Shown: positions 15,151 through 47,890, counted from the stretch's first letter. The stretch is 59,762 nt of DNA from Bacteroidaceae bacterium (GCA_024697285.1 JAILFY010000225.1:1-59762); one strand, 5' to 3'. The notes: generated by a model not told the origin, from the sequence alone. Numbers and translations are program-made.

Positions 15151-15157
15151 ATCAAAG

Positions 15158-28272: not shown

Positions 28273-28276
28273 CTTG

Positions 28277-28350: not shown

Positions 28351-28450
28351 GGGTGGGAATGCGATCTGCATCGCGCCGCTACGACCAAGTACCCTTGCTG
28401 CGGTCAAGCCCTGGGGGATTCCGAGGGAGCTGGCCGTACAGGACATTCCC
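28351..28450 (-). ncRNA. Candidate structured RNA between the two tRNAs, possibly a divergent small SRP/4.5S-type RNA
   Basis: A terminal 7-bp helix (GGGAAUG...CAUUCCC) is followed by ACCC, giving an end ...CCCACCC as in E. coli 4.5S RNA. There is a second helix of about 12 bp (CUGUACGGCCAG / CUUGGUCGUAGCGG, with G-U pairs) and an internal GCAGCAAGG. The canonical apical GGAA tetraloop context is not evident. Confidence 0.35.
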
Positions 28451-28461
28451 GTGTATGGTTG

Positions 28462-28549
28462 CGGAGAGAGCGAGATTCGAACTCGCGAACCGGTTTTGCC
28501 GGTCACACGCTTTCCAGGCGTGCCTCTTCAGCCACTCGAGCACCTCTCC
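28462..28549 (-). tRNA. tRNA-Ser (anticodon GGA)
   Basis: Acceptor GGAGAGG/TCTCTCC, anticodon stem-loop CACGC CTGGAAA GCGTG, long variable arm ACCGG..CCGGT, T arm GCGAG TTCGAAT CTCGC. Length 88 nt. Confidence 0.9.
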
Positions 28550-28670: not shown

Positions 28671-28709
28671 AAAAAAGCCCCCGCAGCAGTTCTGACGGGG
28701 GCTTTTTTC
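28671..28709 (-). terminator. Strong bidirectional hairpin terminator ending the FAS1-SusCD operon
   Basis: The sequence is aaaaaa, stem agcccccg, a 12-nt loop, stem cgggggct, then tttttt. It sits 41 nt past the SusD-like stop. Confidence 0.85.
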
Positions 28710-28749: not shown

Positions 28750-30948
28750 TTACAGTCCGATAAGACCCTTCCAGCTGATGAACCACTTGTTGGGGTCGCT
28801 GACGAGGGGTCCGACGGAGGAATCGCGTTGGCTCAGCTTCTGTGACATATAGGTACCCTTGTCGGTACTGCGATATGCAGCGCGCATGAGCTGACCGAAG
28901 CGGAATCCTTCGAAAGCTGTTTCCAGTGCTGATTCCACATCCAGAAGGCTGTCGACAACGATAACCTGACGGGCGTGGACCTGAGGTACTGCATAGTTGC
29001 GATACCAAGTGGCTACGTCGTCGGCCCATTTCTGCTGGATGCTGTCGGAGTAGGCAATCATCTCAGCCTCAAAGGCCTGAACGGCAGCAAGCTTCTGTGC
29101 ATTTGTTCCTGTGAAAGTAGTGAGGTCCAAAATGGTGATACCATCATTTGCTACAGCCCAGGGGAAGAACTCTGTGTTGTTGTTGAGAATCGTCTCTAAG
29201 TTCTCAGCAGCAGAGGTGAAGGTGCCCAGTGCATTGTACACAGGAGGCTGCGTGGGATAACCCGTGGAGTCAGCCGGTGCATCGTTGTTGGGATCGTAGT
29301 ATTTCGGATTGGCAATGGAGAAACCGCTGCCACGTGCATGGAGACCAATCTGGTTGACGTTGCTGGATTCTTCTTCGGAATTGATGTTGGGCTCGCCATT
29401 TGTCTTGTAGCTCTGCACACGTGTCTGGAAGAACTTGGTGGGGAAGTCAAAGTACTTGACAAAGGTGCTGTCGGCGGTCGTCGTGCACTGGCTGAGCACT
29501 TCGTGGTTGATAACGACGTTGTCCAGACCTGTGGTGAGAATGGCGAGGGCGAATTTCGGGAAACCTGCCACGTTCAGCGCTTCGGCCATACGCAGATAGA
29601 CGTCACCCGTGCGATAGATGATAACATCCTGGGGGAAATAGGTCTTCCATATCATCTGTGACTCGTAGTCATGGTCGCCACGGTAGTCGGTGCTGATATT
29701 AGCAGGCAGACGCAGGTCGCCTAAGTAGTGCTTAGTGAGCTGTGTCTCGGTGAGGACGCTGGATGTGACGTAGTTGGTCACATAGTTTGTTCCATCGTGG
29801 TAATACTCTGCATAGATCTGTCCGTCGGAGTAATCGTAGCAAGCCTGAGAGGGAGATATACTGGCTTCGACGTCTTCGTTCTCCATGTCGTAGTTGTAGA
29901 GGACACGAAGTTCATTGTAGTTCTCGTCGGAGGCCAGGGAGTCCATGGCGATGGCTGTGATCACTTCGTCCCTTGTGGTACCGAAGGAGGTGGTGCTCCA
30001 GTAGGCGTTGTTAGAGTTCTGGAAGCTGGTGAAGTCGCTGGTGGTGAAGCAGCGAGAGGGCCAGTAGGTGCGACGTGTGGAGGTCACGGTCTTCTGCTTG
30101 TAGCCTTCGTTGTTGTCGACACCAATCTCAGTGGGCAGCCAAGTGATGTAGTCGTAGTAGGACTTGGCTGCTTCGCGGGCCAGGTTCTGGTCTTGCTTGA
30201 TGCTGGCGCTCCAGAGGTAGAGATCACCTAAGACCAATTGTATGGGCATAACAGCCATGCGATTCGGCATAGCGTAGCCGTAGACATTATGGTGATAGGG
30301 ATATGCAAACCAGCTGACGAAGGGTTTCAGGTCGTCGATGAAATAGTCGCAAATCTGTTCCAGAGTCATCTTACTGCTGGAAGCATCGCTCAGGATGTTA
30401 TTCGCGTCGTCCAGCGAAAGCACGGGTTTGGTGATGACGGGAATGTTTGAGCCATAGATCTGTCCGAGCTGGAGATAAACCCAAGCGCGGATGGCGCGAA
30501 CGGCACAGTATTCTGCCTGGAAGACGCGGAAGTCATAGGCGGACTGGGTCGTGGCATCGAACCTACGCTCGAACAAGGCGGTGTCGGCGTTGGCCAGATA
30601 ATAGTTGCAGTTGTTGATGACTGCGTAGTAGTCGCGCGGATCGTTGTAGGCATTGTCATCTGTCACGGAGAAGTTGGCAATCTCCTTCAGGTCCGAATTG
30701 GCGTTGGCGTTGACGACGACGAGGTCACCGCGAAGCTCTCCATAGAGATTCGTGCGCACAGCAATCTTCTGAAGTTGTGCCAGGATTCCCACGAACGAGT
30801 TGACGGTGTCGGTGCCCTGTGTAAGATGGTTCTCGTCTGCATAGAGCACATCGTCGTTGCCCATATCAAGCATATCGTCGCAGGAGGTGATGGCTGTGGC
30901 CATTATCGCCAGCAAGGCAAAGGGCAGGATATATTTAATTCTTTTCAT
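28750..30948 (-). CDS. SusD/RagB-family outer-membrane lipoprotein (732 aa, unusually long)
   Basis: Lipobox AITSC followed by DDM. It sits immediately downstream of a SusC-like gene. SusD-like N-terminal helical region (YAVINNCNYYLANAD, RAIRAWVYLQLGQIYG). Confidence 0.8.
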   Translation of the reverse strand: MKRIKYILPFALLAIMATAITSCDDMLDMGNDDVLYADENHLTQGTDTVNSFVGILAQLQKIAVRTNLYGELRGDLVVVNANANSDLKEIANFSVTDDNAYNDPRDYYAVINNCNYYLANADTALFERRFDATTQSAYDFRVFQAEYCAVRAIRAWVYLQLGQIYGSNIPVITKPVLSLDDANNILSDASSSKMTLEQICDYFIDDLKPFVSWFAYPYHHNVYGYAMPNRMAVMPIQLVLGDLYLWSASIKQDQNLAREAAKSYYDYITWLPTEIGVDNNEGYKQKTVTSTRRTYWPSRCFTTSDFTSFQNSNNAYWSTTSFGTTRDEVITAIAMDSLASDENYNELRVLYNYDMENEDVEASISPSQACYDYSDGQIYAEYYHDGTNYVTNYVTSSVLTETQLTKHYLGDLRLPANISTDYRGDHDYESQMIWKTYFPQDVIIYRTGDVYLRMAEALNVAGFPKFALAILTTGLDNVVINHEVLSQCTTTADSTFVKYFDFPTKFFQTRVQSYKTNGEPNINSEEESSNVNQIGLHARGSGFSIANPKYYDPNNDAPADSTGYPTQPPVYNALGTFTSAAENLETILNNNTEFFPWAVANDGITILDLTTFTGTNAQKLAAVQAFEAEMIAYSDSIQQKWADDVATWYRNYAVPQVHARQVIVVDSLLDVESALETAFEGFRFGQLMRAAYRSTDKGTYMSQKLSQRDSSVGPLVSDPNKWFISWKGLIGL

Positions 30949-30984
30949 ATCTTTAAGTCGTTAAGCGATTATGCGTATAGACGT

Positions 30985-33900
30985 TTAGAGGTTGATTTTT
31001 ACACCCACATTTACAGTGCGGCCCTGAGAAACCCATCCAGCATCAATGCCCTGATAGAGGACGCTGTTGGACATGGAGAACTCGGGATCTGTTCCGAGAT
31101 AGCGTGTGAGGGTGAAGAGGTTGGTGGCGTTGCCCCAAACGGTGATACCCTGGATATAGGTATTGTTGATGGGGAGCTTGTAGCTGAGTGTTACGTTCTT
31201 GAGGCGTAAGTAGCTGCCATCTTCAATCCAACGGTCAGAGAAGGCGCTGTTGCCCATGGGATCGCCATAGGTGACACGCGGAACATCTGTGACTTGTCCC
31301 TCGTAGGTCCAACGATTGAGCAGGTTGGTTGTCTGGTTCATGAAGCGAGAACCGGACTCCAGCTGCTGACGCATATAGTTGTAGACGTCTCCACCGAGGC
31401 TGTAGTTGAAGCCGAGTTCGAGAGTAAGACGACGGTAGGAGAGGGTTGTCCAGAGATTGCCATAGATATCGGGATTGGCATCGCCGATGAATGTGCGGTC
31501 GTTGTCGTCTATCCGTCCATTGTTGTCTTGGTCTACATATTTCACGTCGCCGGAGGTGAAGTAGGTCTTTGTCTCTCCGTCGGCAGCCAAGCGGTAGAGT
31601 CCGTCGGCGGCTGCTTCTGCATCGGTGGAATAGACGATACCGCCAGAAGGTGTCTTGGCTGTCTGCAAACCATAGAAACAATTGATGCTGTTGCCAACCT
31701 GGCTGCGGATGGTACCTCCGAGAACGGAGTGATCTTCGTAGTCCAGATTATCGGGCAGCTCGGTGAGAGTGTTGACATAGTGTCCGACACTTGCGCCTAC
31801 ACTCCAGTTCCATTTGTTACCAGAGATGACGTGTGCGGTGAGGCTTACGTCGAAACCTTGGTTCTCCAGCTTGCCGCCGTTGCTCCAGTACTGACTGATA
31901 CCTGTGAGGAAGTTGGAGCTGCGGAGAGTGAGAAGGTCGCTGGTCCAGGAATAGAAGTAGTTGAAGGCTGCAGCAAGGCGGTTGTTGAGGAAGCGTGCTT
32001 CCACACCGGCGTTGAACCGACGGGTCGTCTCCCACTTGAGTTCGGTGTTACCGATGTTCTCGAAGCTCAGACCGGGGGTGGAACTCAGGAACAAGCGGCT
32101 CTTGAAATAGCTCTTGGAGGCGTCGAAGGGGAGATTGTCGTTACCGCTGAGGCCATAACCTGTCTGCAACTTCAGATAGTCCACTCCTTGCACATCGAAC
32201 CAGGGCTCGTTGGAAACCACCCATCCTGCCTGGAGGCTGGGGAAGATTCCCCATACGACACCGCCAAGCTTCAGGCCATCGGCGTCGCGACCGAATTGGG
32301 AGTTGGTCTCCATGGCGATGTCACCCTGCAAGTAGTAGCGGTTGGCGTAGTTGTATTTTGCCTGACCATACCAGGAGAGGGATGCCCAGTTCTCGCGGGT
32401 GCCGTCGATCTGCTTCTGGGCGGTGCCGGAGATAAGAGGAGTCTTGTCGTTGCCGGTGTTATAACCGCTCTGGCTGGTGAGGTAGTAGCCTTCGTTGATG
32501 AATCGGAAACCACCCATCACGTCGATGCTATGTGCATCATAGCGGTTGTTCCATTGCACCTTTGTATCGCTGAGGATACTGTTCTGGCGGGAGTAGAGCG
32601 AACCGATCATATTGTCCATCTTCTGGTGGAAAGCCTGTACCCAGAATGCGGGAACACCATTCATCGGGATGTAGCGTTTCTCGTTGGTGTTGACCAGAGA
32701 ATAGCTGAACAAGGAGGAGAACTTCAGGTGTTTGTTGGGATGCCAGGAGGGGGTGATGGCCAGATTGACGTAGGAATTGTCGTAGTAGTTCTTGTTCTGA
32801 GCAGTTCCGTACTCCAGAATGGCGGTGGGATTAGCCAACTCGTAGTTGGAGTTCCTCAGCTGGGAAATCTCAGAGAGGTAATCCTCGTCGTCGATATCCA
32901 AGTGAGCAGTGGAGATGATGCCAGGACCATTGTTGGATGCTACAAAGCTGTAGGGAGAGAGCATGGGGCTCTTGGCATAGCCCAGGAAGTTCAGTGAGGT
33001 CACTGTGCTCTGCTCGTAGTCCTCGGGGGCACCCAGGTCGTAGAGCTTGCGGGTGGAGTTGCTGAAGCTGGCGTCGAAGCGGACGTCGATCCAGTCGGTG
33101 ATCTTGATATCCGTGTTGAATCGGATATTCAAGCGGTTGTAGTTCATCTCTTTGATGGTCTCGTCGGCGTGATAATAACCCAGCGAGAGCATGTAGTTGG
33201 CCACGTCACCACCACCTTGTACACTTAGACCATAGCGCTGAGCGACGGCTGCGTTGTACACTTCCTTTGTCCAGTCCGTGTTGTTGGAGTACTTGTTGTA
33301 GTAGTAGTTGTAGTTGTACGGGTCAGCGGAGTTGTAGGGACGCTCATCCACGAACTTGAAGGAAAGCATCTTCGTACCAGTGGACTGCATGAGTGAACTG
33401 GCATAAGTCTTGAACTGAGAGCCACTCAACATGCTGTAGTGATCAGGGATGAATTCCACACCTACGCTGGCTGTTGCAGCAATGCGAGTAGCCAAGGAGG
33501 TGTTGCGCTTTGTGTTGATGAGGATGACTCCGTTCGCACCTTTTGCGCCATAGATAGCGGTACCATTGCGCATGACCTCAACACTCTCGATGTCGTTGAC
33601 GTTGAAGTTGGAGAGGACGTCGTTGTAGAAGCCGGAGTGAATCATTTCGCGGTCGTACTGCATTTCGGTGATGACACCGTCGATGACCACGAGAGGCTGA
33701 GCGTTGGAGAGGTAACTGCCTACACCACTTATCTGCATGTAAGCACCCAGTCCGTTGATACCGCTGCGCTCTGTCGTATAGACATCGGCACCCAGCTGGT
33801 TCTCTATTTCCGTGGCAACGTTGGCGGCAGAGGAGAAATCGAAGCCGCCGGCACGGGAGTGACCGAGGATGTTGTCGTCTTCGCCATAGAGAGCTTTGGC

Positions 33901-34287
33901 AGCATCGCTTTGCATGACGATATCACGCAGATGTCCACTCTCGTTGAGTCCCACGCGTACCTTATTATATCCAGGGATGGTGACTTCTACGGCCGAGCTG
34001 TAGAGGGGAACGTTCAGTTTGAAGGTTCCGTCTTCTTCAGTAAGTGCTGAATAGCCATTGCCGGCAATAGACTGTACGAGGACACCTGCCAAGGGGGCGA
34101 GGCCCTGCTGGCTCACTACCCGTCCCGTGATCTCGCGGGTGGGTTCCTGTTTCTTCGCGGCAGCCTTTCGTGCACGCAACACGGCGGTGGTGTCGATTTC
34201 TTCTTCCTCGATTTCGTCCTGCGCAAATCCGGCAACAGGAGCAGCTACGAGAAACAGGGAGAAACAAATATATCCTATTGTCTTCAT
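30985..34287 (-). CDS. SusC/RagA-family TonB-dependent outer-membrane transporter
   Basis: Signal peptide, carboxypeptidase-regulatory-like N-domain (ITGRVVSQQGLAPLAGVLVQ), a plug (AIYGAKGANGVILINTKR), and a long beta-barrel ending in NVGVKINL. Confidence 0.9.
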   Translation of the reverse strand: MKTIGYICFSLFLVAAPVAGFAQDEIEEEEIDTTAVLRARKAAAKKQEPTREITGRVVSQQGLAPLAGVLVQSIAGNGYSALTEEDGTFKLNVPLYSSAVEVTIPGYNKVRVGLNESGHLRDIVMQSDAAKALYGEDDNILGHSRAGGFDFSSAANVATEIENQLGADVYTTERSGINGLGAYMQISGVGSYLSNAQPLVVIDGVITEMQYDREMIHSGFYNDVLSNFNVNDIESVEVMRNGTAIYGAKGANGVILINTKRNTSLATRIAATASVGVEFIPDHYSMLSGSQFKTYASSLMQSTGTKMLSFKFVDERPYNSADPYNYNYYYNKYSNNTDWTKEVYNAAVAQRYGLSVQGGGDVANYMLSLGYYHADETIKEMNYNRLNIRFNTDIKITDWIDVRFDASFSNSTRKLYDLGAPEDYEQSTVTSLNFLGYAKSPMLSPYSFVASNNGPGIISTAHLDIDDEDYLSEISQLRNSNYELANPTAILEYGTAQNKNYYDNSYVNLAITPSWHPNKHLKFSSLFSYSLVNTNEKRYIPMNGVPAFWVQAFHQKMDNMIGSLYSRQNSILSDTKVQWNNRYDAHSIDVMGGFRFINEGYYLTSQSGYNTGNDKTPLISGTAQKQIDGTRENWASLSWYGQAKYNYANRYYLQGDIAMETNSQFGRDADGLKLGGVVWGIFPSLQAGWVVSNEPWFDVQGVDYLKLQTGYGLSGNDNLPFDASKSYFKSRLFLSSTPGLSFENIGNTELKWETTRRFNAGVEARFLNNRLAAAFNYFYSWTSDLLTLRSSNFLTGISQYWSNGGKLENQGFDVSLTAHVISGNKWNWSVGASVGHYVNTLTELPDNLDYEDHSVLGGTIRSQVGNSINCFYGLQTAKTPSGGIVYSTDAEAAADGLYRLAADGETKTYFTSGDVKYVDQDNNGRIDDNDRTFIGDANPDIYGNLWTTLSYRRLTLELGFNYSLGGDVYNYMRQQLESGSRFMNQTTNLLNRWTYEGQVTDVPRVTYGDPMGNSAFSDRWIEDGSYLRLKNVTLSYKLPINNTYIQGITVWGNATNLFTLTRYLGTDPEFSMSNSVLYQGIDAGWVSQGRTVNVGVKINL

Positions 34288-36236
34288 AGTGAGATGTTGA
34301 ATTCTTTCAGGTTAGACAAATCGAGTTGGAAGTTGTTGGCTTCTTCTTCCGTCTCGAACGGAATGTAGATGATGCGGTTTATGCGCATAATATTAGTCTG
34401 CTGACCTCTGGAGAGTGCCGAGTTGCTGACGTCGGAAGCGACACTGTAGCGGAGAACCGTTTCCGTGTTGGCGCTCAGGAAATTGTATGACGAGAAGGTC
34501 GGCTTGCGAGCTTTGTCGATGCAGATGATGTCAATTTCATTGCCAGTGGTCATGAATTTCGTGGCGCTACCAGCGCTGTGGGTTTCCCCTGCGGGCACCT
34601 TCAGAAGGTGTTCGGGCTTGCGGTCGTTCTTCTGCTCGTCGTACTTGAGGTCGTCGTTGGGGTAGGACTGCATGAAGGCGCTGTCCTGCTTGTCTGTACG
34701 TTCCTCTTCCAGGCGCTCGTGGAAATAGCACTCAAAACGCATAGGCAGTACCTCGGACTTCTGATAACCATCGTAGGAGAGGTAGGGAGGAACCATCACC
34801 AGATATACGTTATAATAGAGGTTGGCAAACGTATTGGGGAGGTAGAAGTACATACGGCTGGTGGTGTTCTTCACGCCAGGGTAGGCCAAAGGTGCCACCT
34901 CTAGGTAGTTCTCTCCCTTGAGGACATTCTGTTGCTTCAGCAGACTTACATCATAAGTTGTGCCCTCGTAAGTGACTGTGTCCACGAAGGAGCGGATGGT
35001 TGTCTGCACGGCAGGTACTATTTCTCCTGCATATCCAATCTTGGAGAGGTTGAAGTAGCGGGGACTTGTTGCCATGAGATAGCGAGACTCCAAGAAGGTG
35101 TTCTTGGGATCCACTCTGCCTTCTGTATCTTTGTAGATCCGGCCGTTGGAGCAGCTCCAAGGTGTGAGTCCGTCGAGGATGCCACCTGCTTCATTGGGCT
35201 GGTAGAAGACGTTGAGACCATAGTAGTCTTTGTGGCGAACATACATGGTATTGACCAAGGAATCACATTCCTCGATTTTCTTACCACGCTGACCATTCAT
35301 GTTGAACATCCTGCCTCGGATGATGGCAATCTTGGCGTTCAGGAGAGCCACACTGTCGCGGTTCTGGACGTCCTTGACGTAGTTGAACAAGGGTGAGAAG
35401 CGTACCAATTCTTTACTCCATACATCGTTGGTGGGAGCCAAGAAGGCGTAGGAGCTGTCCTCGCGGGCAATCCATCCTAAAGTACTGTAGAGTTGGTTGC
35501 TCAGGTTCAGTACAGAGTCAGCGTAAACGATCTTACCATTGACAATGCCTCTCTGCACGCTGGCACTCTCGTCGAGGGAGTATTGGTCGAAGAGGGTGTA
35601 GAAGGCAGCCACGCTGTCGAGGTCTGCGTCGAGCAGCAGGTGGTCACGAACACTCGGTATGAAGACGAGGGGACTGCTGAGGGTGTAGAGAATACCATTA
35701 TTGGCCACCACATTCTTGCGGACGAAGGTGGCTTCGTTGAGGGCATTCTCGGTAAGCACCATGTATTTGCCATTCATCATTCTGATGGAGTCGGAATAGT
35801 TCTCATATACCGAGCGACCGTACAGGGCGATGTGGTTCTGCAGGAACTGTGTGATGGCTTTGTTGTCCTTGTCTTGGATATATCGCTGCGAGCCATCAGG
35901 CATTGTTATAATGGTGTGCTTCTGTGTGTCATAGAGGGCTATGATACTGTCGGCCTGTTCCGTGGTGAGGGCAGGAGCCCACACTGTCAGCGACTGTGGG
36001 CCATCGAGCACGAGGTCGTAGCCGATATGTTCCAGCACGCGCTGGAATTCTTTCAGACTGCCGTCGGCCTTGATGAGCTCAAAGAGCGAAGGTTGGTTGG
36101 CAGCGTTTTCGTTGTCGGAGTCCTCATAGTGGCTGTTCCAATCGTCGGAGCAGGAACTGATGCCCAGTGCGCCTACTGCGAAGATGGCGGAAGCCATGAG
36201 GGTCAGATATCTGGATGTTTTCATTGTAGTATACAA
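34284..36236 (-). CDS. FAS1 (fasciclin)-domain lipoprotein, 650 aa
   Basis: Lipobox GISSC followed by SDDW. FAS1-like segment LKEFQRVLEHIGYDLVLDGPQSLTVWAPALT. The stop overlaps the SusC ATG as ATGA. An alternative ATG is at 36224. Confidence 0.7.
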   Translation of the reverse strand: MYTTMKTSRYLTLMASAIFAVGALGISSCSDDWNSHYEDSDNENAANQPSLFELIKADGSLKEFQRVLEHIGYDLVLDGPQSLTVWAPALTTEQADSIIALYDTQKHTIITMPDGSQRYIQDKDNKAITQFLQNHIALYGRSVYENYSDSIRMMNGKYMVLTENALNEATFVRKNVVANNGILYTLSSPLVFIPSVRDHLLLDADLDSVAAFYTLFDQYSLDESASVQRGIVNGKIVYADSVLNLSNQLYSTLGWIAREDSSYAFLAPTNDVWSKELVRFSPLFNYVKDVQNRDSVALLNAKIAIIRGRMFNMNGQRGKKIEECDSLVNTMYVRHKDYYGLNVFYQPNEAGGILDGLTPWSCSNGRIYKDTEGRVDPKNTFLESRYLMATSPRYFNLSKIGYAGEIVPAVQTTIRSFVDTVTYEGTTYDVSLLKQQNVLKGENYLEVAPLAYPGVKNTTSRMYFYLPNTFANLYYNVYLVMVPPYLSYDGYQKSEVLPMRFECYFHERLEEERTDKQDSAFMQSYPNDDLKYDEQKNDRKPEHLLKVPAGETHSAGSATKFMTTGNEIDIICIDKARKPTFSSYNFLSANTETVLRYSVASDVSNSALSRGQQTNIMRINRIIYIPFETEEEANNFQLDLSNLKEFNISL

Positions 36237-36268
36237 TTCAGATTGTGGATTACGTTGTTTCGGGTGAA

Positions 36269-38446: not shown

Positions 38447-38459
38447 AATTGTATATCTT

Positions 38460-40277
38460 TTACTTATTCATTTCTATACCTTCAGTGGCCTCATTCTTGT
38501 AGATAACCTTCTGATTAAGGTTCGGATTGACTTTAATCTCTTCCTTGTTGTAGGGCCAGAAGAGGTGAGCCATGCTTGGGAAACCATTGTTGGAGCTGGC
38601 ACCACCCATGGTCTTGGACGAAGGAACGTTAGCCTTTACGATGTCCGTCTTACCCTCGCGTCGAGCGTAGCGAACGAGGTCGAACCAACGTTTGCCTTCG
38701 AACATCAGTTCGCGGTTGCGCTCCTGCATGAGGAAGGTGTTCATCAGCGCTCTGGTCGTCATGTTGGCAGCGGTGGGGGAGAGGTATTTGCTGTTGTCGG
38801 TGACGGAGCGGCGGTTGACGAGATAGATGAGGTCAAAGGCCTGGTTCATGAGAGCCGTGTTCTCCTCGCTGACTTCGTCGGTTGCCTTCTGCAACAGAGC
38901 TTCTGCTTCCATGAGCATGACGTCTGTCAGTCTGTAGAAAATCCAGTTGCGATTCAACTCGCTATCCAAAATGAAATTGCTGGCGTTGTAGTTGATAAAG
39001 GGCATCGTTGCGTTGCTCTGGTCGGAAGTGATGTTGAATTCCATGGCTACGCCTTTGCGAATTGTGCCTTCACCATACTCGCTATTGGCGGGCTTGACGT
39101 TGTTGTAGTAGCGAACGTCATACTGGTGGGGGTAGTAGGTGTAGCTGCGGCTGTAGACATCAGATACGATGTCGGGACGTGCCGTGAGATAACCGCTTCC
39201 GGAGTTTGAGGGGCCGATAGATGTGTCGGTGTTTCCGGTTCCGAAGAGGGTTGCCAGAGCGGAGCTCTTGACATAGTTCTTACTGCTGGAGCTGTAGTTG
39301 AAGCTCAGCTCAAAGATACTCTCGAAGCTGTTGCCTGTTCCGAAAATGGCATTGAACGACTGCGAGGGGTCCTGGCGTGTGTTCTGATAGAGATAAGCCA
39401 CGCGTCCGAAGGGAGCTCCGGTGATTTCTTTGGGAGTGTTCGAAATGGATGAACTTCCAGTCTGATTCCCGTAGAACTCATAGTAGTCAGAAGCCTTGGA
39501 TTTGATGATTTCCTCGGCGCAAGCGATACATTTGTCCCACTCGCCCGTCCAGAGATACATATCACACAGCATGGCGTCGATTCCATAACGGGTGATGCGG
39601 TTGCAGTTGCTGTTGTAGTCACGTCCGATGTTGTCCAGACTGCTCATGGGGTAGCGTGAGAGCGCGTCGTTCTTCACGTACTCGAGGTCCTTGATGATCT
39701 CATTGAGGACGTAGTTGAAGCTGTCGGGTGCGAGGTATTGCACTTCGTCCTCCTGCTGCACGCTTTCGCGGTAGAAAGGAACATCCTCAAAGGCGCGGAT
39801 GAGGTAGAAGTAGCAGAGGGAACGCAGGGCTGTCATCTCTGCAATGGTGGCTTTCACGTCGCTCTCCCTGTAGGAGGGGTCTTTCTCGCTGACGACGGGA
39901 GCCATGCGGATAATCGTGTTGCACTTGTTGATGACTGCATAGAAGCTGGACCAGTTCGTGAAGGAGCTGGTGGAGAGCAGGTTCTCGCGCAGTGCCTGAT
40001 AGAGGTCGTTATTATCGTTTTCCACGTTGGAACCCGGATAGATGTTGTCGCTGCGGAGTTCTCCCCATACTTCACATCTATTGATGAAGTCAGCGCTTTG
40101 CATGGAAGCGTAGCATCCAGCAACCATCTGGTCAACGTCCGTCTTCTCGTTCCAGAAGTTATCTTCTGTGACGATATCACGAGGCTCGATCTCCAGGAAG
40201 TCGGCACAACTGACTGCACCCAAAGCCATGATGGCTATAAGTGTGGCATTCTTTATATTTATATATAGGTGTCTCAT
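38460..40277 (-). CDS. SusD/RagB-family outer-membrane lipoprotein (605 aa)
   Basis: From ATG 40277: MRHLYINIKNATLIAIMALGAVSCADF. SusD-like helices (FYAVINKCNTIIR, LRSLCYFYLIRAFEDVPF; RWFDLVRY near the C-terminus). Confidence 0.88.
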   Translation of the reverse strand: MRHLYINIKNATLIAIMALGAVSCADFLEIEPRDIVTEDNFWNEKTDVDQMVAGCYASMQSADFINRCEVWGELRSDNIYPGSNVENDNNDLYQALRENLLSTSSFTNWSSFYAVINKCNTIIRMAPVVSEKDPSYRESDVKATIAEMTALRSLCYFYLIRAFEDVPFYRESVQQEDEVQYLAPDSFNYVLNEIIKDLEYVKNDALSRYPMSSLDNIGRDYNSNCNRITRYGIDAMLCDMYLWTGEWDKCIACAEEIIKSKASDYYEFYGNQTGSSSISNTPKEITGAPFGRVAYLYQNTRQDPSQSFNAIFGTGNSFESIFELSFNYSSSSKNYVKSSALATLFGTGNTDTSIGPSNSGSGYLTARPDIVSDVYSRSYTYYPHQYDVRYYNNVKPANSEYGEGTIRKGVAMEFNITSDQSNATMPFINYNASNFILDSELNRNWIFYRLTDVMLMEAEALLQKATDEVSEENTALMNQAFDLIYLVNRRSVTDNSKYLSPTAANMTTRALMNTFLMQERNRELMFEGKRWFDLVRYARREGKTDIVKANVPSSKTMGGASSNNGFPSMAHLFWPYNKEEIKVNPNLNQKVIYKNEATEGIEMNK

Positions 40278-40296
40278 ATCTTCATGTTGCTTTAGA

Positions 40297-43200
40297 TTAG
40301 AAACCAATGGTGAGGCCTACGGTGTAGGATTTAGAGCGCGGTGTCTGGCTGCCGTCGGTGGTGACGCCGTAGCCACCGTAACCGATTTCCGGATCCACGC
40401 CGGAATACTTCGTCAGGCAGAAGAGGTTGTTGGCGCTGGCGTAGAAGTTCAGTGTGGACATATTCCATCTCTTCAGCTTCTTGGGATCGAAGCTGTAGTT
40501 GATCTGCAGATAGTTCAGACGCAGGAATGTGCCGTCCTCTACGAAGCGGTCGCTGATAAGTGTGTTGTAGTTGGAGCCGCTACCGAACATAGCGCGTGGA
40601 ATGCTGGTGACGTCACCTTCCTTGCGCCAGCGATAGTTCACGGCCTCGCTCTGGTTGTTGTTGCTGATCATGGATTCCATGTCCAGACGAGCCATGTTCA
40701 GGATGTCGTAGTCTATACGATAGTTGAAGTTGGCTCTCAGGGCCCAACGGTCGTAGTGCAGTGTAAGACCGAAACCACCGGTGAGCTTCGGCAGAGAGTT
40801 GCCGAGGTACACGATATCAAGCTGGTTGATATTACCATCGTGGTTCACGTCTTCGTAGATGGCGTCGCCACCCTTGAAGGCATAGCCCGTACCCGTGGAA
40901 GTCTTGTAGGCGAAGCGCATCTGAATAGGATCTCCGTGAGCGTCGCGGACAAAAGTTCCGTCGGCGTTGGTCACGATAGGATAGGTCCATCCCTTCTGAT
41001 CCATGTTGGCTTGCAGCTGGTCCGTTCCTGCCTTGATGTCGGAGCGGGCGATGTCGCGGGCGGTGTCGTAGTTATATTGGTAAACGCCCTTGTAGCGGAA
41101 TCCGTAGATGGAACCGAACGGGTTGTTGAGCTGTACGCGCTGGAGCACGGAACGGTTGTTCTCTGTCCAGTCGATGTTCAAGCTGGCGAGCACCAGAGGA
41201 TCCATCTTTGTGATGACGTTGCGGTTGTTGGCGAAGTTGACGTAGGCGTCCATCCAGAATTTGCCCTTCTTGAGGAGGCGTTCGCCGTCGATCTGCAATT
41301 CCCAACCTTCGTTCTTCATGTCACCCACATTTCTGTAAGTGAGGCTGGACCAACCGTTGCTGGAAGGAATGCCGGAGTTGCTCATCAGCATGTCCTTGGT
41401 GGTACGGTGATAGAGGTCGACGACGAACTTCAGTCTGTCGTCGAAGAAGTGCAGGTTCACACCTAAGTTCCAGGTGATGATGTTCTCCCACTTGAGTTCG
41501 GTCAGCTTCAGTCCACTGGGGTTCATACTCACTTGATTCAGGTAGTTGGAACCTTGTGCGAAGCGGTTCATATACAGGTAGTCAGCACCCGGAGGGTTAC
41601 CCACGAGACCCCATCCCGGACGGATGGAGAACATGCTTACTTTAGCCTTCTCGCGTGCCCATTCCATCCAAGGTTCATCGATGATGTTCCAACGGCCGGA
41701 AACGGCGGGGAAGTAACCCCAGCGGTTGTTGGGACCGAACTTCGTGGTGGCGTCGATACGCATTGAGAAGTCAAACATGTAGCGGCTCTTGTAGCTGTAG
41801 TGAGTAGATAAGGTGTAGTAGAGAGAGCGCCATTCATTGAAGCCGCTGCTCATGGCGCTTACGAAGCCGCCGGAGGTGACGCTCTGCTGGCGTTCCGGCA
41901 GACGGTAGACATCTGTGCTCTGGCTGCTGGAGCTACCGCTGACGAGCTGGAAGCGTCCCATGGCCAGCAAGTAGTGGTCTTTGTTTTCGAAGTAAGGCTG
42001 GAAGGTCAGCGTGTGGGTGGTCGTGAAAGCCAGGTTCTTACGAGAATAGCTGTAGGCCGAACCGGAATCCCAGTAGTTGGTAGTTACCTGTGAGCTGGGG
42101 AAACTTTTGTCGGTGTAGTCGTTGTACACGTTCATCACCACGCGGCCGTTGTAGCGCAGTTGCGTGCTGTTGTCATCCAGACCCAGGAGCTTGTACTCCA
42201 GCTCCAGTTCGGGAGTGATATCGTAAGTCGTCTGGTCGTTCTTCGCAAATTTTGCACTCGACAGCGGGTTGTGCAGGTCACGTTGGTCTGTGAAGTTGTT
42301 CTGCTGCGCAGCCGTAAGTTGTCCGTAGTTGGTGAAGGCGTAGCGAGGAACGATGTAGTATTCACCCGTGTTGTATTCGTTGCCATTCTCGTCGTAGGCG
42401 TAGCGATAGGGCGAGAGGTTAGGCATCTTCGTGTAGGCGATACCGAGGAGACCATCGTAGTTACGATTGTTCTTCGTGTAGGTTAGTGCGAAGTTGGAGA
42501 TGATCTTGATGCGGTCGTTGACGTAGTAGTCCAGAGCCATACGCGTGCTGAAGCGGTTCAGCTTCTGCTCGATGATGGTACCTGTCTCGTGGTCATAACC
42601 GCCGGAGATGCGGAAGAGGGTCTTCTCGTCACCACCGGAGATGCTGACGTAGTGGTTCTGGCGCAGACCGTTTTGCTTCACGAGGTCCACCCAGTCGGTG
42701 TTCTTGTTGAACATCAGGAACTCGGAGTAGGACTCGTCGTAGTTGAGCTCATTGACCTGACCTACCCAGGGATCCAGCTGCGGATTGAAGTAGCTCTCTT
42801 TCAGAAGCATGGTGTAGTGGTCACCGTCGAGGAGCTTGATGCCCTCGGGCTGGTGTGTCATGGTCATCTTCAGGGAGTAGGTCACTTTTGGTTTGCCTCG
42901 TGAACCACGTTTTGTGGTGATCTCGATGACACCATTAGCACCCTGAGAACCCCAGATAGCTGTTGCGGCAGCATCCTTCAGCACCTTGATGTCGGCAATA
43001 TCCTCCGTGTTCACATTCAGCAACTGAGCGAATTTCTCGTCGTTGGCAGTGCTGACATCGAAGTCTGAGAGGTCCACGTTCCAAACGTTTCCGTTGACGA
43101 CGATGAGCGGTTCATTGGAGGTGAGGGTGGACACGGTGGTGGCGCCGCGCAGACGCATGCTGGTACCTGAGCCGAGGTCACCGGAGTTCATCACGATATC

Positions 43201-43674
43201 CAGACCGGCGATACGTCCTTGCAGGGCTTCGTCAACAGAAGTGATACCGAGACCCTCGAACTCCTTGGCGCTGATGCCCTGTGCCGAGAAGCTGACCTCT
43301 CGTTCGGGGATTTCCAGACCCGAAGTCTTCATCTTCTTCTTCACCACGACTTGCACTTCCTTCATCTGCTTGGTAGCGTCCTGCATGGTGATCTTATAGA
43401 CAGTCTTGTTGATAGGCAGCTGCTGGGTTTTGTAGCCCATGAAGCTGATGCGCAGTTTGTTTTTCGCACTCTTGATGGGGAGGACGAAATTACCATTCAT
43501 ATCGGTCACAGTGGCGTTGACGACACGATTAGAGGCGTCGACCTCAGCCACGCTGGCACCAGGGAGTACATCGATATCATCACTGATAGTACCACTGATG
43601 CGTGAAATCTGAGCCATTGCCAGAGAACTCACCAGCATGAGGCTAAGCGTTATATAATATCTTAATGTTTTCAT
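40297..43674 (-). CDS. SusC/RagA-family TonB-dependent outer-membrane transporter
   Basis: Signal peptide, N-terminal carboxypeptidase-regulatory-like domain, a plug (ALQGRIAGLDI..AIWGSQGANGVIEITTKRG), and a barrel ending in TVGLTIGF. Confidence 0.92.
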   Translation of the reverse strand: MKTLRYYITLSLMLVSSLAMAQISRISGTISDDIDVLPGASVAEVDASNRVVNATVTDMNGNFVLPIKSAKNKLRISFMGYKTQQLPINKTVYKITMQDATKQMKEVQVVVKKKMKTSGLEIPEREVSFSAQGISAKEFEGLGITSVDEALQGRIAGLDIVMNSGDLGSGTSMRLRGATTVSTLTSNEPLIVVNGNVWNVDLSDFDVSTANDEKFAQLLNVNTEDIADIKVLKDAAATAIWGSQGANGVIEITTKRGSRGKPKVTYSLKMTMTHQPEGIKLLDGDHYTMLLKESYFNPQLDPWVGQVNELNYDESYSEFLMFNKNTDWVDLVKQNGLRQNHYVSISGGDEKTLFRISGGYDHETGTIIEQKLNRFSTRMALDYYVNDRIKIISNFALTYTKNNRNYDGLLGIAYTKMPNLSPYRYAYDENGNEYNTGEYYIVPRYAFTNYGQLTAAQQNNFTDQRDLHNPLSSAKFAKNDQTTYDITPELELEYKLLGLDDNSTQLRYNGRVVMNVYNDYTDKSFPSSQVTTNYWDSGSAYSYSRKNLAFTTTHTLTFQPYFENKDHYLLAMGRFQLVSGSSSSQSTDVYRLPERQQSVTSGGFVSAMSSGFNEWRSLYYTLSTHYSYKSRYMFDFSMRIDATTKFGPNNRWGYFPAVSGRWNIIDEPWMEWAREKAKVSMFSIRPGWGLVGNPPGADYLYMNRFAQGSNYLNQVSMNPSGLKLTELKWENIITWNLGVNLHFFDDRLKFVVDLYHRTTKDMLMSNSGIPSSNGWSSLTYRNVGDMKNEGWELQIDGERLLKKGKFWMDAYVNFANNRNVITKMDPLVLASLNIDWTENNRSVLQRVQLNNPFGSIYGFRYKGVYQYNYDTARDIARSDIKAGTDQLQANMDQKGWTYPIVTNADGTFVRDAHGDPIQMRFAYKTSTGTGYAFKGGDAIYEDVNHDGNINQLDIVYLGNSLPKLTGGFGLTLHYDRWALRANFNYRIDYDILNMARLDMESMISNNNQSEAVNYRWRKEGDVTSIPRAMFGSGSNYNTLISDRFVEDGTFLRLNYLQINYSFDPKKLKRWNMSTLNFYASANNLFCLTKYSGVDPEIGYGGYGVTTDGSQTPRSKSYTVGLTIGF

Positions 43675-43686
43675 CTTCTGAGCCCT

Positions 43687-46626
43687 TTATTTGCGTTTTA
43701 CCTCGAAATCTGCTACAGGATAAGTGGGCTTGGGGAAGCCATCGGGTAGCAATTGGTCGTCGGAGTAGAGCAGCACATTGTCGATAGTGTGAACCACGAC
43801 GTATGCAGAGGAGTATATCCAACGATTCTTGTTGAATGCATATTGACGGGAGACAAGGTTGCTGTGGTCGCCAGCTACTACGTTGGCCACCTTGCCACGG
43901 GCATCGGTCACGGTGATAGCAGATCCCGAGTTGCCCACATTGAGTCGGCGGAAGAGGCTGGTGGCCTCGTCGTAGGCTGCTGTCTCATAGACGTTGCTCG
44001 TCTGCTCTCCTCCCAGGTAGATGGAGCCGTCCTGGATATGATAGCGTACGAAGTTCGTCTGCACAGAGTCGATGAAGGCCATGCAGCTCTTGGCTTTCGT
44101 CTCAATGCTGTCGTACTTCTCGTTCTCCAAGGTCTCGCGGTCAGCCCATTGCTGCTTGAGGACTTCGTCGTCCTTGTCAGCTGAGTTCTTGAAGTCGGTG
44201 TACAGAGAGTCGAAGATGTCCTTGATGACCTTAGCGCTGTCGATCACGCTCTGCCACTCGTCGTATTCCTCGATGGTGGGCAGCTTGTGCTTATCGATAA
44301 GTTCTTGGATCTTGTCATTCTGAGGTACGTAGATAGTATAGTGGTACTTGCTCAGGATATTGATACCATAGTTGATGTATGGGTAGTCAGCCGAACCGAA
44401 GTTCTTCGAGATGATGGAACTGCTGGGGCCAATCAACGTGGCGAAGAGCGAGAAGTCGGGGTGGCTGATGGTGTCGTGAAGGATGTCGTAGGGGGCGGTG
44501 AGTGTCGTCGAAGGGATGGAATCCAGGACGTAGGACACGCCGTTGCCGGCTTCCGTCTGGTCGAAGATCATGTCTTCCTTCACGGGGATGAAGGTGCCGC
44601 GTTCCATCTGTGCAGAGCCTGCAATGCCGGTCACCTTGGTGCCGGAGAATTGCACCTTGATGGGGCTTCCAGCCTTCGTCAGGTAGATTTCCTGTTCGGG
44701 GTGGAATGTCTGAGAACCTTTAGACCCATGCACGACGATGAGGTTGTCGAAGAAATCCGTCATGCGGTTGTTGATGAATCCGAGGCCCTTGGAGTCTGTG
44801 GAGGTAGGCTGGAAGGTGGCCGGTTCGTCCGTGACAATCATCTGGCCGCCAGTGGTGTCCACTACGAAGGCTTCTGCCGAGACGGGGAAGTTCTTGCTCT
44901 GGGAATCGATATAGTAGCGATAAGCCACCGGCTTCTTGTTGCTCAGGTTCTGTTCATAGATGCCATAAGGATCAATGATATTCGTGAACGCCTCGTCTTT
45001 CGGCAACAGGAAGCTGTAGGTGGAAGCCATAGAGTTCACGTAAGCCTGGTTCTCATAACCGGTCCAGTCCATGGTGTAGGCGTGTGTTGGTGGCTTATAA
45101 CGAGTATCGGATATGAAGCGATACATCACGCTGAGGTCCTGATCTTGTCGGAGGGTTACGGGGAAGAAGACGCTCTGGTGCTCAGGAGCGACGTAGACGT
45201 TGCTCATCTGGTACACCACGCCATTACATGCCATGAAGCAGCTGTCCACCTTATCTACGGTAAGACCCATGGGTTCGGACTGGGTGTCTTTCACGTTGTC
45301 GAACTTGCTGGGAGTAGAAGAGATAAGGCTGCTCTTCATGCAGTTGTTCAGGAAGGGGAGCACGATAGCATCGGGCACGTTATCCCAATTATAATTATAC
45401 TTGACACCGATGGGTTTGCCGTCGCCTTGTGTGATGTAGTAATTCATCCATTCGTCGGTGGGGACGAAGATGGCGGCACCATCGGTGTTAGCTGTGATTT
45501 GTTCGTTGGTAGTATTGATGCAGTAGGCATTCCATCCTGGATCCAGAGTCAGCACGCTGCTCAGAGGTGTCTCCGAGTCAGAGGGTGTGTCGAACGCGTT
45601 CTTGCCGTTGTTGAAGTAACGCTTCACGAAGATAGAGTCGCTGCGGCCTTCCACCTCGCGCATACCGATGAACTGCGGATAGCTGAAGCGCTCGAGCAGC
45701 GAACTGAAGATGCTGAACTGCGGTTTCGTGCGGATGATCTCTGCCATGTTGGGCAGCTGCTCGGGAACGGATTCCAGCACGTGGATGTAACCATTCTGGC
45801 AGGTGATGTCCTGCAGGAACTCCTTGGCCGAACCGTCGGTGTTCACATCCTTGTCCGGCCATCTGCCATCGTTCTCCGCCACAGGCAGACCATTGATGTA
45901 GCTGCGGTCGGTGGTCTGGCAGGCACCGTTGGTCAGCACCTGGATGTCCTGTTGCACGATGTCGTTGCTCGACATGAAGTCGGGCGTGAAGTGCACCATC
46001 GTCGGAGCGTTGTTGTCCTTATATAATAAGATGTTCGCGCGTCCGCGCACGTGACTCCAGTAGTCAATCACGGAAGTGTTGCCGGCGGTGTCGCTTTCTA
46101 TTCGAGCAGGGTTGTAGGGAGGCATCTCCGAGGCCAGCACTACGGGAATGGAATCGCTGATATCCACGCGGCTTGAGCGGCGCATGAACAATCCTTCTGT
46201 TGGAGGATCGCCAGGTTTGTTGCTCAGCAATTCGATGAGGTAGGCGTTGTTGATCATCGCACCTTTCAGCAGGTTCTTCTTTTCTGCCTTCGAAAGTTCG
46301 TTGACTGACGACACCCCACGTGCGTCCAGATACTTTTTCCATGCCGCATCATCGGCCACGAACAAGGTGAGGCTTCCCGTGCGGCGAAGCATCTCCGGAT
46401 AGTTCGTCTCCGAGAGGTCTGGGTCGTTGATGAGAGCCAGCGTCGTTTGGAAGTCGCCTCTGCTCTCCAGCTCTTCATAAATGCTGCTGCCCAACCATGT
46501 AGGAGTGCCTGTGAGCAAGTCGTCCGTACAGGACGTCCAGCTCAACGGTCCTCCGATGAGGAGCATTGCAGCAAACACTCGGCTTGCACCTTTGGCAAGC
46601 CTTCGCTTGAGAATACTGTTTTCCAT
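43687..46626 (-). CDS. Multi-FAS1-like lipoprotein, 979 aa, first gene of the operon
   Basis: Lipobox SWTSC followed by TDDL. Several FAS1-like motifs (SLTLFVADDAAWKKYL, AAIFVPTDEWMNYY, YSFLLPKDEAFTNI, YTIYVPQNDKIQELI). Confidence 0.7.
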   Translation of the reverse strand: MENSILKRRLAKGASRVFAAMLLIGGPLSWTSCTDDLLTGTPTWLGSSIYEELESRGDFQTTLALINDPDLSETNYPEMLRRTGSLTLFVADDAAWKKYLDARGVSSVNELSKAEKKNLLKGAMINNAYLIELLSNKPGDPPTEGLFMRRSSRVDISDSIPVVLASEMPPYNPARIESDTAGNTSVIDYWSHVRGRANILLYKDNNAPTMVHFTPDFMSSNDIVQQDIQVLTNGACQTTDRSYINGLPVAENDGRWPDKDVNTDGSAKEFLQDITCQNGYIHVLESVPEQLPNMAEIIRTKPQFSIFSSLLERFSYPQFIGMREVEGRSDSIFVKRYFNNGKNAFDTPSDSETPLSSVLTLDPGWNAYCINTTNEQITANTDGAAIFVPTDEWMNYYITQGDGKPIGVKYNYNWDNVPDAIVLPFLNNCMKSSLISSTPSKFDNVKDTQSEPMGLTVDKVDSCFMACNGVVYQMSNVYVAPEHQSVFFPVTLRQDQDLSVMYRFISDTRYKPPTHAYTMDWTGYENQAYVNSMASTYSFLLPKDEAFTNIIDPYGIYEQNLSNKKPVAYRYYIDSQSKNFPVSAEAFVVDTTGGQMIVTDEPATFQPTSTDSKGLGFINNRMTDFFDNLIVVHGSKGSQTFHPEQEIYLTKAGSPIKVQFSGTKVTGIAGSAQMERGTFIPVKEDMIFDQTEAGNGVSYVLDSIPSTTLTAPYDILHDTISHPDFSLFATLIGPSSSIISKNFGSADYPYINYGINILSKYHYTIYVPQNDKIQELIDKHKLPTIEEYDEWQSVIDSAKVIKDIFDSLYTDFKNSADKDDEVLKQQWADRETLENEKYDSIETKAKSCMAFIDSVQTNFVRYHIQDGSIYLGGEQTSNVYETAAYDEATSLFRRLNVGNSGSAITVTDARGKVANVVAGDHSNLVSRQYAFNKNRWIYSSAYVVVHTIDNVLLYSDDQLLPDGFPKPTYPVADFEVKRK

Positions 46627-46775
46627 TTAAAATTGTTAATATATGAATGTTTTGATTTCCTTTTGAGATAAACTCTTTTGTTGGGTGAATAATGCTGATT
46701 TCTTGGCTGTTACGTTGTAAATTTCTTTATTACATGTTAGTTAGCACTCGTGGGTACAAACCCACATATTTGCAA

Positions 46776-46783
46776 CAAAATTA
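46776..46783 (-). promoter_or_regulatory. Nearest candidate -7 box (TAATTTTG) for the FAS1-SusCD operon
   Basis: Plus-strand caaaatta, about 150 nt upstream of ATG 46626. I saw no clear -33 TTTG. Confidence 0.3.
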
Positions 46784-47790: not shown

Positions 47791-47890
47791 CGCTCAACAC
47801 CCTCCATTCAGGATAACTACCACTCTCCCCACCCTTGTATAGTTCCATGTTTCAACAGGTCCTAACCCTTGTTTTAACAGGCTACACCCT

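Follow-up and report, generated by a model that had tools for sequence, protein, structure and literature searches.

We analyzed a 59,762-nt stretch of DNA from a Bacteroidaceae bacterium (GCA_024697285.1, JAILFY010000225.1:1-59762; hereafter the window), which carries a block of seven consecutive genes, G1 to G7, on its minus strand. These genes encode two SusC/SusD importer pairs and three lipoproteins of the fasciclin (FAS1) domain family, and the cassette holds neither an enzyme nor a sensor. With a probability of about 0.6, we interpret it as a utilisome-like, uptake-only machine with two SusCD transporters, in which the FAS1 proteins would serve as capture subunits. We do not regard this as a categorically new mechanism but as an uncharacterised transporter architecture that is intact and very widespread in the Prevotellaceae that dominate gut and rumen, and that is recorded by automatic annotation only.

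Two SusC/SusD pairs and three FAS1 lipoproteins form one cassette

All seven long open reading frames (ORFs) that a first-pass annotation of the window had placed on the minus strand between positions 28750 and 46626 were found at those coordinates (Table 1), and 99.3% of this block is coding. G2 and G6 are SusC/RagA TonB-dependent transporters, matching TIGR04056 with 660 and 555 bits, respectively (cut-off 368), and each has a Plug domain by Pfam. G2 also scored above the cut-offs of TIGR04057 (53.5 bits against 46.2) and of the CarboxypepD_reg-like N-terminal domain CarbopepD_reg_2, while G6, which has an acidic/basic N-terminal extension, fell below both (36.9 bits for TIGR04057). No STN domain was matched by Pfam in G2 or G6, which rules out trans-envelope signalling by extracytoplasmic function (ECF) sigma factors via these transporters. 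Each SusC gene is adjacent to a SusD-like gene, giving the two pairs G2/G3 and G6/G7. G3 matches PF07980 (63 bits) and PF14322 (39 bits). The PF07980 score of the more divergent G7 is borderline (23.5 bits, cut-off 23.1), and comparison of its ortholog profile with that of G3 by hhalign gave a probability of 100% with an E-value of 2e-44.

The first-pass annotation had called the module duplicated. This is true in an ancient sense only and does not extend to a recent duplication, as the two SusC proteins are 23% identical to each other and the two SusD proteins likewise 23%. Together with their distinct ortholog groups, this low identity indicates that the double-transporter layout is an ancient, fixed architecture. 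The nearest solved SusC chain for both G2 and G6 is 8aa4_A from the dextran utilisome of Bacteroides thetaiotaomicron (B. theta), at 307 and 248 bits, respectively. Scores against the levan SusC were 182 and 179 bits and those against the peptide importer RagA 172 and 156 bits; against the peptide importer BT_2264, G2 scored 72 bits and G6 had no match at E <= 1e-10.

The three proteins outside the SusCD pairs, G1, G4 and G5, had been read as FAS1 proteins from sequence motifs. Searches against Pfam and NCBIfam, and structure models for G1 and G4, agree with this assignment and not with carbohydrate-active enzymes (CAZymes) or peptidases, and the four FAS1 motifs and the lipoboxes SCTDDL, SCSDDM and SCSDDW that had been quoted are present in the respective proteins. 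PF02469 (Fasciclin) matched G1 with 37.4 bits and G4 with 34.1 bits (cut-off 22), and G5 below the cut-off with 19.8 bits. The ortholog profile of G5 matches the FAS1 domain of periostin (E 3e-6) and the N-terminal FAS1 region of the G4 family (97% by hhalign), and the protein has an N-terminal FAS1 domain, with AFLAPTN at residue 264 as a further motif of FAS1 type. The G4 profile matches the FAS1 domains of periostin and TGFBIp.

AlphaFold2 models of G1 and G4 were built on alignments of about 100 sequences and compared with the PDB by Foldseek. Both models are of high score (pLDDT 91.8 and pTM 0.83 for G1; 90.8 and 0.85 for G4) and match TGFBIp, periostin and fasciclin I with E-values from 8e-18 to 7e-11, their single FAS1 domains reaching target TM values of 0.7-0.78. 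G1 aligned with TGFBIp (7asg) over about 940 columns (E 8e-18) and is modelled as a TGFBIp/periostin-like FAS1 chain in which residues 785-862, close to the C-terminus, form a long helical hairpin; Foldseek found no further fold in it. In the G4 model, the two N-terminal domains match the fasciclin I FAS1 pair 1o70. The C-terminal beta-sandwich is similar in fold to 7ehg, the MiXBM xanthan-binding module (target TM 0.73, E 4e-5), and to the entries 2w47, 4qb2 and 2w1w of carbohydrate-binding module (CBM) family 35 (target TM 0.56-0.60, E up to 3e-3). The ortholog alignment shows many invariant Arg, Asp, Glu, Gln and Tyr residues in it (R463, R465, D467, R481, D534, E535, R562, Q575, Y577, R671, R688, D703 and E706). 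This domain had no Pfam match, and no Pfam CBM was hit even at E <= 10. A CBM-like domain common to G5 and G4 was considered and rejected, as hhalign found no match between their C-terminal halves; an earlier full-length match of G5 to G4 (96%) was owed mainly to the N-terminal FAS1 region. No enzyme family was detected in the seven proteins by Pfam or NCBIfam, and no enzyme fold in the models of G1 and G4.

In each FAS1 protein the lipobox cysteine, written here before the slash, is followed by acidic residues, as had been noted before: TSC/TDDL in G1, LVSC/SDDM in G4 and ISSC/SDDW in G5. The same holds for the SusD proteins (AVSC/ADFLE in G3 and ITSC/DDMLD in G7) and thus for all five lipoproteins, with the acidic residues within about five positions of the cysteine; a crude motif tally shows strings of this kind to be frequent among orthologs. 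We take a lipobox cysteine with following acidic residues to be the surface-export signal of Bacteroidota, and from this signature the five lipoproteins are probably exposed on the cell surface.

Gene sizes were as first listed, including 605 aa for G3 from its ATG, except that G5 had been given as 650 aa from a TTG; the ATG, which gives 646 aa, is most likely its start. Inspection of the sequence confirmed the tight junctions and the ATGA overlap between G5 and G6. The terminator described beyond G7 also proved strong, with the 110-nt region around the hairpin folding at -42.2 kcal/mol (z -5.6) and 0 of 200 shuffles equally stable. No internal terminator-like site was found on the minus strand of the cassette. 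The gene spacing, the single upstream promoter box, the lack of an internal terminator-like site and the one strong terminal hairpin are all compatible with a single transcription unit, in which the genes would be co-transcribed.

Table 1. Coordinates of the cassette genes, of one domain within G4 and of the flanking signals in the window, listed in the direction of transcription.
Feature	Position	Strand	Description	Junction to next gene
-7 box TAATTTTG (TAnnTTTG)	46776..46783	-	Bacteroidetes-type; putative promoter, 157 nt upstream of G1 start	
5' leader	46627..46775	-	motifs CUAACUAAC and CAAAAGGAAAUCAA, shared when 13 leaders of the close clade were aligned	
G1	43687..46626	-	predicted FAS1 surface lipoprotein, 979 aa	12 nt
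G2	40297..43674	-	SusC/RagA TonB-dependent transporter 1, 1125 aa	19-nt gap with ATG start of G3 (605 aa), or 11-nt overlap with TTG start
G3	38460..40277	-	SusD-like lipoprotein 1, 605 aa from ATG	13 nt
G4	36269..38446	-	tandem FAS1 pair and C-terminal beta-sandwich, 725 aa	44 nt with ATG start of G5, or 32 nt with TTG start
G4 C-terminal domain	36302..36979	-	CBM35/CBM6-like in the model, about residues 490-715	
G5	34284..36224	-	predicted FAS1 surface lipoprotein, 646 aa from ATG	ATGA overlap at 34284-34287, G6 start over G5 stop
G6	30985..34287	-	SusC/RagA TonB-dependent transporter 2, 1100 aa	36 nt
G7	28750..30948	-	divergent SusD-like lipoprotein 2, 732 aa	
Intrinsic terminator hairpin	28671..28709	-	AAAAAAGCCCCCG...CGGGGGCTTTTTT, GC-rich stem then T-run	

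The cassette is conserved as a unit across Prevotellaceae

In a scan of one genome per GTDB species, at least 590 genomes encode a relative of G4, and carriers include Prevotella, Paraprevotella, Hallella and uncultured rumen Bacteroidaceae. G4 has hundreds of full-length homologs, nearly all from uncultured gut or rumen Bacteroidaceae and Prevotellaceae, whose annotation, where given, is only "fasciclin domain-containing protein"; at the 50% identity level, 544 clusters share its architecture (E <= 1e-30), and look-ups of clusters of distant relatives yielded almost solely metagenomic proteins without names. Cultured carriers of the cassette include Paraprevotella xylaniphila, Paraprevotella clara and Hallella faecis.

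All seven proteins were mapped onto 85 loci (L001 and following). Every comparison locus that holds both G1 and G7 in order keeps the whole G1-G7 order on one strand (74/74). Conservation is highest for the SusC proteins, with identities of 51-90% for G2 and 47-87% for G6 in most related loci, and lipoprotein identity falls to 27-35% across the comparison loci. One Prevotella metagenome-assembled genome (MAG), PUUB57_bin.008, has two complete cassettes on different contigs (L057 and L085), which suggests paralogous diversification, as is usual for polysaccharide utilisation loci (PULs).

The flanks, by comparison, vary by lineage and include panB, tRNA synthetase genes (Ile-tRNA synthetase), polysaccharide-synthesis genes and helicases. 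The nearest flanking ORFs, 58 upstream and 100 downstream, were scanned with Pfam. Upstream, the matches were panB (14), MFS_1 (5), GH43 (4) and GH16 (1), and downstream DUF6055 (26), Glyco_hydro_cc (4), GH43 (2) and Reg_prop (2), the last being of the type found in hybrid two-component systems (HTCS) and absent from all 58 upstream ORFs. No enzyme or regulator was a universal partner in these flanks. Such differing surroundings without a universal partner indicate that selection acts on the heptad itself.

Enzyme and sensor genes are absent from the cassette

The first-pass annotation had stated that no sensor lies in or beside the locus. This was upheld: none of the annotated long ORFs of the window encodes an HTCS, SusR or ECF/anti-sigma protein, and the SusC proteins lack an STN match. 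The parallel statement on enzymes is correct for the cassette itself and slightly overstated for its vicinity, as a GH43 gene (49594-50703) and a gene for an M64 (IgA-peptidase-like) peptidase (50616-51908) lie on the minus strand 3-5 kb upstream. An acyl-ACP thioesterase gene and a 2.2-kb gap separate these two genes from G1, and in the comparative loci both were non-conserved partners of the cassette. The GH43 ORF as listed begins at a GTG and shares 88 nt with the M64 gene, and its true start is thus probably further in. A tblastn search of the window for remnants of the flank genes c1, c2, c5 and c7 of Prevotella-type loci returned none.

A canonical PUL combines a SusC/SusD pair, which the cassette has, with a co-localised glycoside hydrolase (GH), polysaccharide lyase or carbohydrate esterase and a linked regulator, which it lacks. 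Having neither linked CAZymes nor a linked sensor, the cassette was filed as a variant of PULs and not as a member.

Lineage-specific partners offer clues to the substrate

In other lineages the cassette has acquired likely enzymes, namely GH43-CBM6 proteins, HExxH proteins with signals for type IX secretion (T9SS) and DUF6055 proteins; these partners are absent from the window's own cassette. GH43 is the most recurrent CAZyme in the flanks (6 of 158 ORFs). In P. xylaniphila YIT 11841, a GH43-CBM6 gene (L066, 693-2222) precedes G1 on the same strand, with 177 bp between its end and G1. Downstream in this locus, on the opposite strand, is a gene for a 781-aa protein of the c2 family, other members of which have a T9SS-type C-terminus; it had no confident Pfam or NCBIfam family. 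The GH43 of the window has one ortholog, 70% identical, encoded just downstream of the cassette of L013 on the opposite strand. GH43 as a conserved partner was rejected, given the sporadic linkage and the 21% identity between the P. xylaniphila GH43-CBM6 protein and the GH43 of the window.

Two stand-alone paralogs of G4 (42% identical), both in one MAG, lie outside SusCD cassettes (L028, 3635-5791, and L029, 9944-12070). One has GH43, GH10 and an MFS_2 sugar symporter as neighbors, a cluster of the xylan-utilisation type, and the other is located 52 bp upstream of a GH31 gene. Both also adjoin unannotated genes whose products have T9SS-type C-termini.

In about a dozen Prevotella-type loci (L043, L050, L058, L059, L062, L068, L071, L073-L075, L078 and L085), the gene for a T9SS cargo protein, c7, ends 2-36 bp before G1, forming a tightly coupled eighth and first gene of the cassette. 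The c7 proteins are 690-770 aa long, have an invariant HEGIH and belong to no Pfam family. DUF6055 proteins with an HExGH motif, one or two per locus, are encoded after G7 in about 17 loci, at gaps of 240-400 bp; the Prevotella-type loci with c7 have such downstream genes too. The c7 and DUF6055 proteins align collinearly with HExxH in register, at an hhalign probability of only 18%. DUF6055 is weakly similar to Svx/AvrXca (33-55 bits against a family cut-off of 625) and has no sequence relative in the PDB. Svx is reportedly a gluzincin metallopeptidase whose presumed target is plant extensins (PMC10815107), and the DUF6055 domain is present in a protein that one paper assigns to the poorly described MEROPS family M106.

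Proposed function and alternative explanations

In the mechanism that we propose, the two distinct TonB-dependent barrels, G2 and G6, would each work with its own SusD-type lid, G3 and G7, presumably as complexes in the outer membrane. The three FAS1 lipoproteins would act as surface substrate-capture arms, in the role that surface glycan-binding proteins (SGBPs) fill in classical PULs. G1 could be a long reach-out rod of about four FAS1 domains, G4 a FAS1 pair presenting a CBM35/6-like module, and G5 a protein of related build. A captured ligand would be handed to the SusD lid and pass through the SusC barrel with TonB energy. Without a depolymerase or a sensor of its own, the cassette would import pre-processed ligands or depend on enzymes encoded elsewhere. 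In the former case, the ligand may already be small or soluble enough, for instance as oligosaccharides or glycoconjugate fragments set free by other enzymes or organisms; in the latter, the enzymes could in some lineages be the adjoining GH43-CBM6, T9SS HExxH and DUF6055 proteins.

Several clues lean towards a glycan: the CBM35/6-like domain of G4, the affinities of the SusC proteins, the CAZyme-adjacent G4 paralogs, the GH43-CBM6 gene of P. xylaniphila, the GH43 genes in the flanks, and a FAS1 protein drawn within a GH5/GH9/GH26 PUL of marine Flavobacteriaceae (PMC4891872). We put a glycan as the substrate class at roughly even odds. The glycan and glycoprotein clues are both compatible with plant cell-wall material, and a plant cell-wall-derived glycan or glycoconjugate is the most likely class of ligand. 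Some observations weigh against importation of glycans by capture through FAS1 proteins. The likeness of G4 to CBMs is one of modelled fold only (target TM 0.56-0.73, 8-14% identity), and the ranking of SusC bit scores is a weak predictor of substrate. Linkage to GH43 is sporadic, at 6 of 158 flanking ORFs, in loci that are not phylogenetically independent of one another; the abundance of GH43 genes in these genomes makes chance adjacency plausible. The C-terminal half of G5, which has no assigned fold, could conceal an activity. Finally, the strongest lineage neighbors, DUF6055 (26 of 100 downstream ORFs) and c7, look like zinc peptidases and not glycosidases.

The cassette may instead import peptides or glycopeptides in the manner of RagAB or BT_2261-2264, with the FAS1 proteins binding (glyco)proteins such as extensins or arabinogalactan proteins cut by the neighboring zinc peptidases. 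We consider this rather unlikely. Eukaryotic FAS1 domains mediate protein-protein adhesion, the cassette has no CAZyme, and the window itself has the M64 peptidase gene 4 kb upstream. The placement of c7, with its HEGIH, 2-36 bp before G1 in Prevotella-type loci also speaks for a peptide importer, but the peptidase-like neighbors are lineage-specific, being absent from the window and its closest relatives. The DUF6055 proteins (HExGH) of about 17 loci, prominent as they are among the downstream ORFs, follow G7 only after gaps of 240-400 bp. Their weak likeness to Svx/AvrXca would connect them to the extensins that are the presumed target of Svx according to PMC10815107, yet its 33-55 bits are far under the family cut-off of 625, and homology between c7 and DUF6055 is unproven at an hhalign probability of 18%. 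For both transporters of the cassette, glycan SusCs outscore RagA and BT_2264, and the CBM-like module of G4 and the G4 paralogs beside GH10, GH43 and GH31 likewise argue against peptides. There is also a broader form of our preferred reading, which we regard as quite improbable: the heptad would be a core, largely sensor-independent "glycoconjugate utilisome" of Prevotellaceae, with FAS1 as an unrecognised class of surface substrate-binding protein and two kinds of fragment imported by the two different SusCD channels. These could be, for example, the glycan and glycopeptide moieties of extensins or arabinogalactan proteins (hydroxyproline-rich glycoproteins), released by GH43, Svx-like DUF6055 and T9SS HExxH proteins.

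Two further explanations were weighed. FAS1 is classically an adhesion domain, bacterial FAS1 proteins have been so interpreted in genome papers (PMC2668756, PMC7661554), and G1 as modelled is a long TGFBIp-like multi-FAS1 rod, so that the lipoproteins might be mainly adhesins for plant particles, mucus or cells in a surface-architecture module where SusCD is secondary. It is very unlikely that this accounts for the cassette, as the interleaved order with two SusCD pairs is strictly kept in 74 loci, which points to a joint machine and not to chance, the SusC proteins exceed the other members in conservation, and the tight junctions and ATGA overlap imply coupled expression. The cassette might also take up a non-polymeric nutrient, such as a cofactor, a metal chelate or a lipid-like molecule, as SusCD-like and TonB-dependent systems that import vitamins do. 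Housekeeping-like contexts (panB, tRNA synthetases), the lack of enzymes and of a dedicated sensor, and the very broad conservation would suit such an importer. Some FAS1-fold proteins bind small hydrophobic ligands, and the carotenoid-binding AstaPo1 (8c18) is among the Foldseek matches of G4. We nonetheless see only a slight chance for it: two SusCD pairs with three large multidomain lipoproteins seem too elaborate for the task, no riboswitch or other Rfam element was found upstream even at E <= 1, and the CBM-like domain and CAZyme-adjacent paralogs point to glycans.

Relation to known systems

The first-pass annotation had presented the locus as lacking a characterised counterpart, and we found no characterised PUL that matches it in the literature on FAS1/fasciclin with SusC/SusD, PULs, TonB-dependent transporters, Prevotella and Paraprevotella. 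SGBPs often carry glycan-binding modules, to which the CBM-like domain of G4 may be compared, and those that have been characterised are built mostly of Ig-like or beta-sandwich domains. Like the PULs and SusCD utilisomes of Bacteroides (the Sus starch system and the levan and dextran utilisomes; 8A9Y-8AA4, PMC7618045), the cassette has SusC/SusD pairs with surface lipoproteins alongside. Unlike them, it has no GH or lyase and no HTCS, SusR or ECF/anti-sigma gene, with none of these conserved in the flanks, and it has two non-identical SusCD pairs, FAS1 accessory proteins and a housekeeping-like context.

A CAZyme-free SusC/SusD core is shared with BT_2261-2264 (5fq6-5fq8) and with RagAB of Porphyromonas gingivalis (6sli). 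BT_2261-2264 has two extra lipoproteins, and the substrate of both systems arrives pre-processed, as peptides. Both have a single SusCD pair against two in the cassette, and their sequence similarity to it is below that of the glycan SusCs. We know of no FAS1 protein among the accessory lipoproteins of these peptide systems.

With respect to its domains, G1 is chain-like, as are the eukaryotic multi-FAS1 matrix proteins TGFBIp/betaig-h3, periostin and insect fasciclin I. Bacterial proteins with a single FAS1 domain include Rhodobacter Fdp (1w7d) and MPB70. In contrast to these eukaryotic and bacterial FAS1 proteins, G1, G4 and G5 are predicted Gram-negative outer-membrane lipoproteins encoded inside a transporter operon. 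They also differ from known FAS1 proteins in their large insertions (the helical hairpin of G1), in the CBM-like fusion of G4 and in an identity of 10-14%. A FAS1 gene next to SusD and TonB-dependent transporter genes is seen in the "cellulose/hemicellulose-like" GH5/GH9/GH26 PUL of Gramella portivictoriae and other Flavobacteriaceae (PMC4891872). Unlike the cassette, that PUL has CAZymes, an AraC regulator and inner-membrane transporters, and its FAS1 protein appears in that paper in a figure only.

The trypsin-recruiting locus 00502-00509 of Paraprevotella (PMC9477747) was considered as a possible instance of the cassette and rejected. It has six intervening genes, 00503-00508, against seven in the cassette. 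Eleven of the twelve mutagenesis primers for 00503-00508, which are P. clara sequences, had no match at up to four mismatches in seven cassette loci, none of them from P. clara; the twelfth had one 4-mismatch match, in L039, which is spurious. The identity between P. clara and P. xylaniphila, 82% for 00503 against at least 90% for G1, is a further misfit. P. clara has yielded insertional and deletion mutants (PMC9477747), and with the cassette present in cultured Paraprevotella its function is directly testable.

FAS1 is a domain family that is not tied to nutrient uptake in the accessible literature. Prevotella and its relatives are dominant in the rumen and in the gut of many humans, yet a handful of enzyme- and sensor-bearing Bacteroides PULs supplies most of what is understood of SusCD transport. 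If the FAS1 proteins are indeed substrate-capture subunits, the surface-binding proteins of the utilisome model would come to include a class new to it. Fixed double-SusCD machines would then exist, and a nutrient that is probably plant-derived would be broadly important to the ecology of Prevotellaceae.

Leader, upstream gap and other features of the window

The putative promoter upstream of G1 has an equivalent in most of the related loci shown, where a -7 box stands about 70-140 nt upstream of G1. In a close clade (L001, L006-L017 and L035, besides the window at 46627-46783 on the minus strand), the leader has a common layout of -7 box, variable hairpin, CUAACUAAC, variable hairpin, UAACCAAAAGGAAAUCAA, about 25 nt and AUG. 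The two hairpins of the close relatives are matched in position and variable in sequence. Compared with shuffled sequences, the minimum free energy of the leaders had a mean z of -1.4, with 5 of 13 below -2; the leader of the window, which has an insertion of about 45 nt, had a z of -0.1. A consensus structure for the leader was rejected, as RNAalifold predicted no pairs on the MAFFT alignment. From its layout the cassette leader may be an undescribed cis-regulatory leader, for which these features are suggestive only.

A riboswitch or other known RNA in the leader or in the 2.2-kb gap was likewise rejected by Rfam searches at the gathering threshold and at E <= 1; the upstream matches were only spurious hits of miRNA precursors on inverted repeats, below gathering scores. 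The noncoding gap of 2.2 kb that separates the acyl-ACP thioesterase gene from the cassette is rich in repeats. It includes an AT-rich tandem array of an 80-bp unit (48279-48588; 3.9 copies, 93% match) with no ORF and no Rfam match. Large inverted or palindromic repeats are present at 47877-47980 and 47069-47194, and a 22-bp unit, TTGTTCGATCATGTTCGAACAA, occurs in three copies at 47896-47960. GC-rich repeated segments (ctgtaggggcag...cgtgccag) are found at about 47000-47400 and 48100-48200.

A KduI/IolB-like gene and, after it, a GH97 gene (14111-17107, plus strand) lie about 12 kb from the cassette on its downstream side, with no adjacent SusCD. Housekeeping genes make up the remaining long ORFs annotated in the window. 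Just past the cassette terminator are RNA genes that place the organism in Bacteroidales: those for tRNA-Ser(GGA), the Bacteroidales small SRP RNA (RF04183, 115 bits) and tRNA-Thr(TGT) are arranged head to tail on the minus strand at 28276-28549, only 0-3 nt apart.

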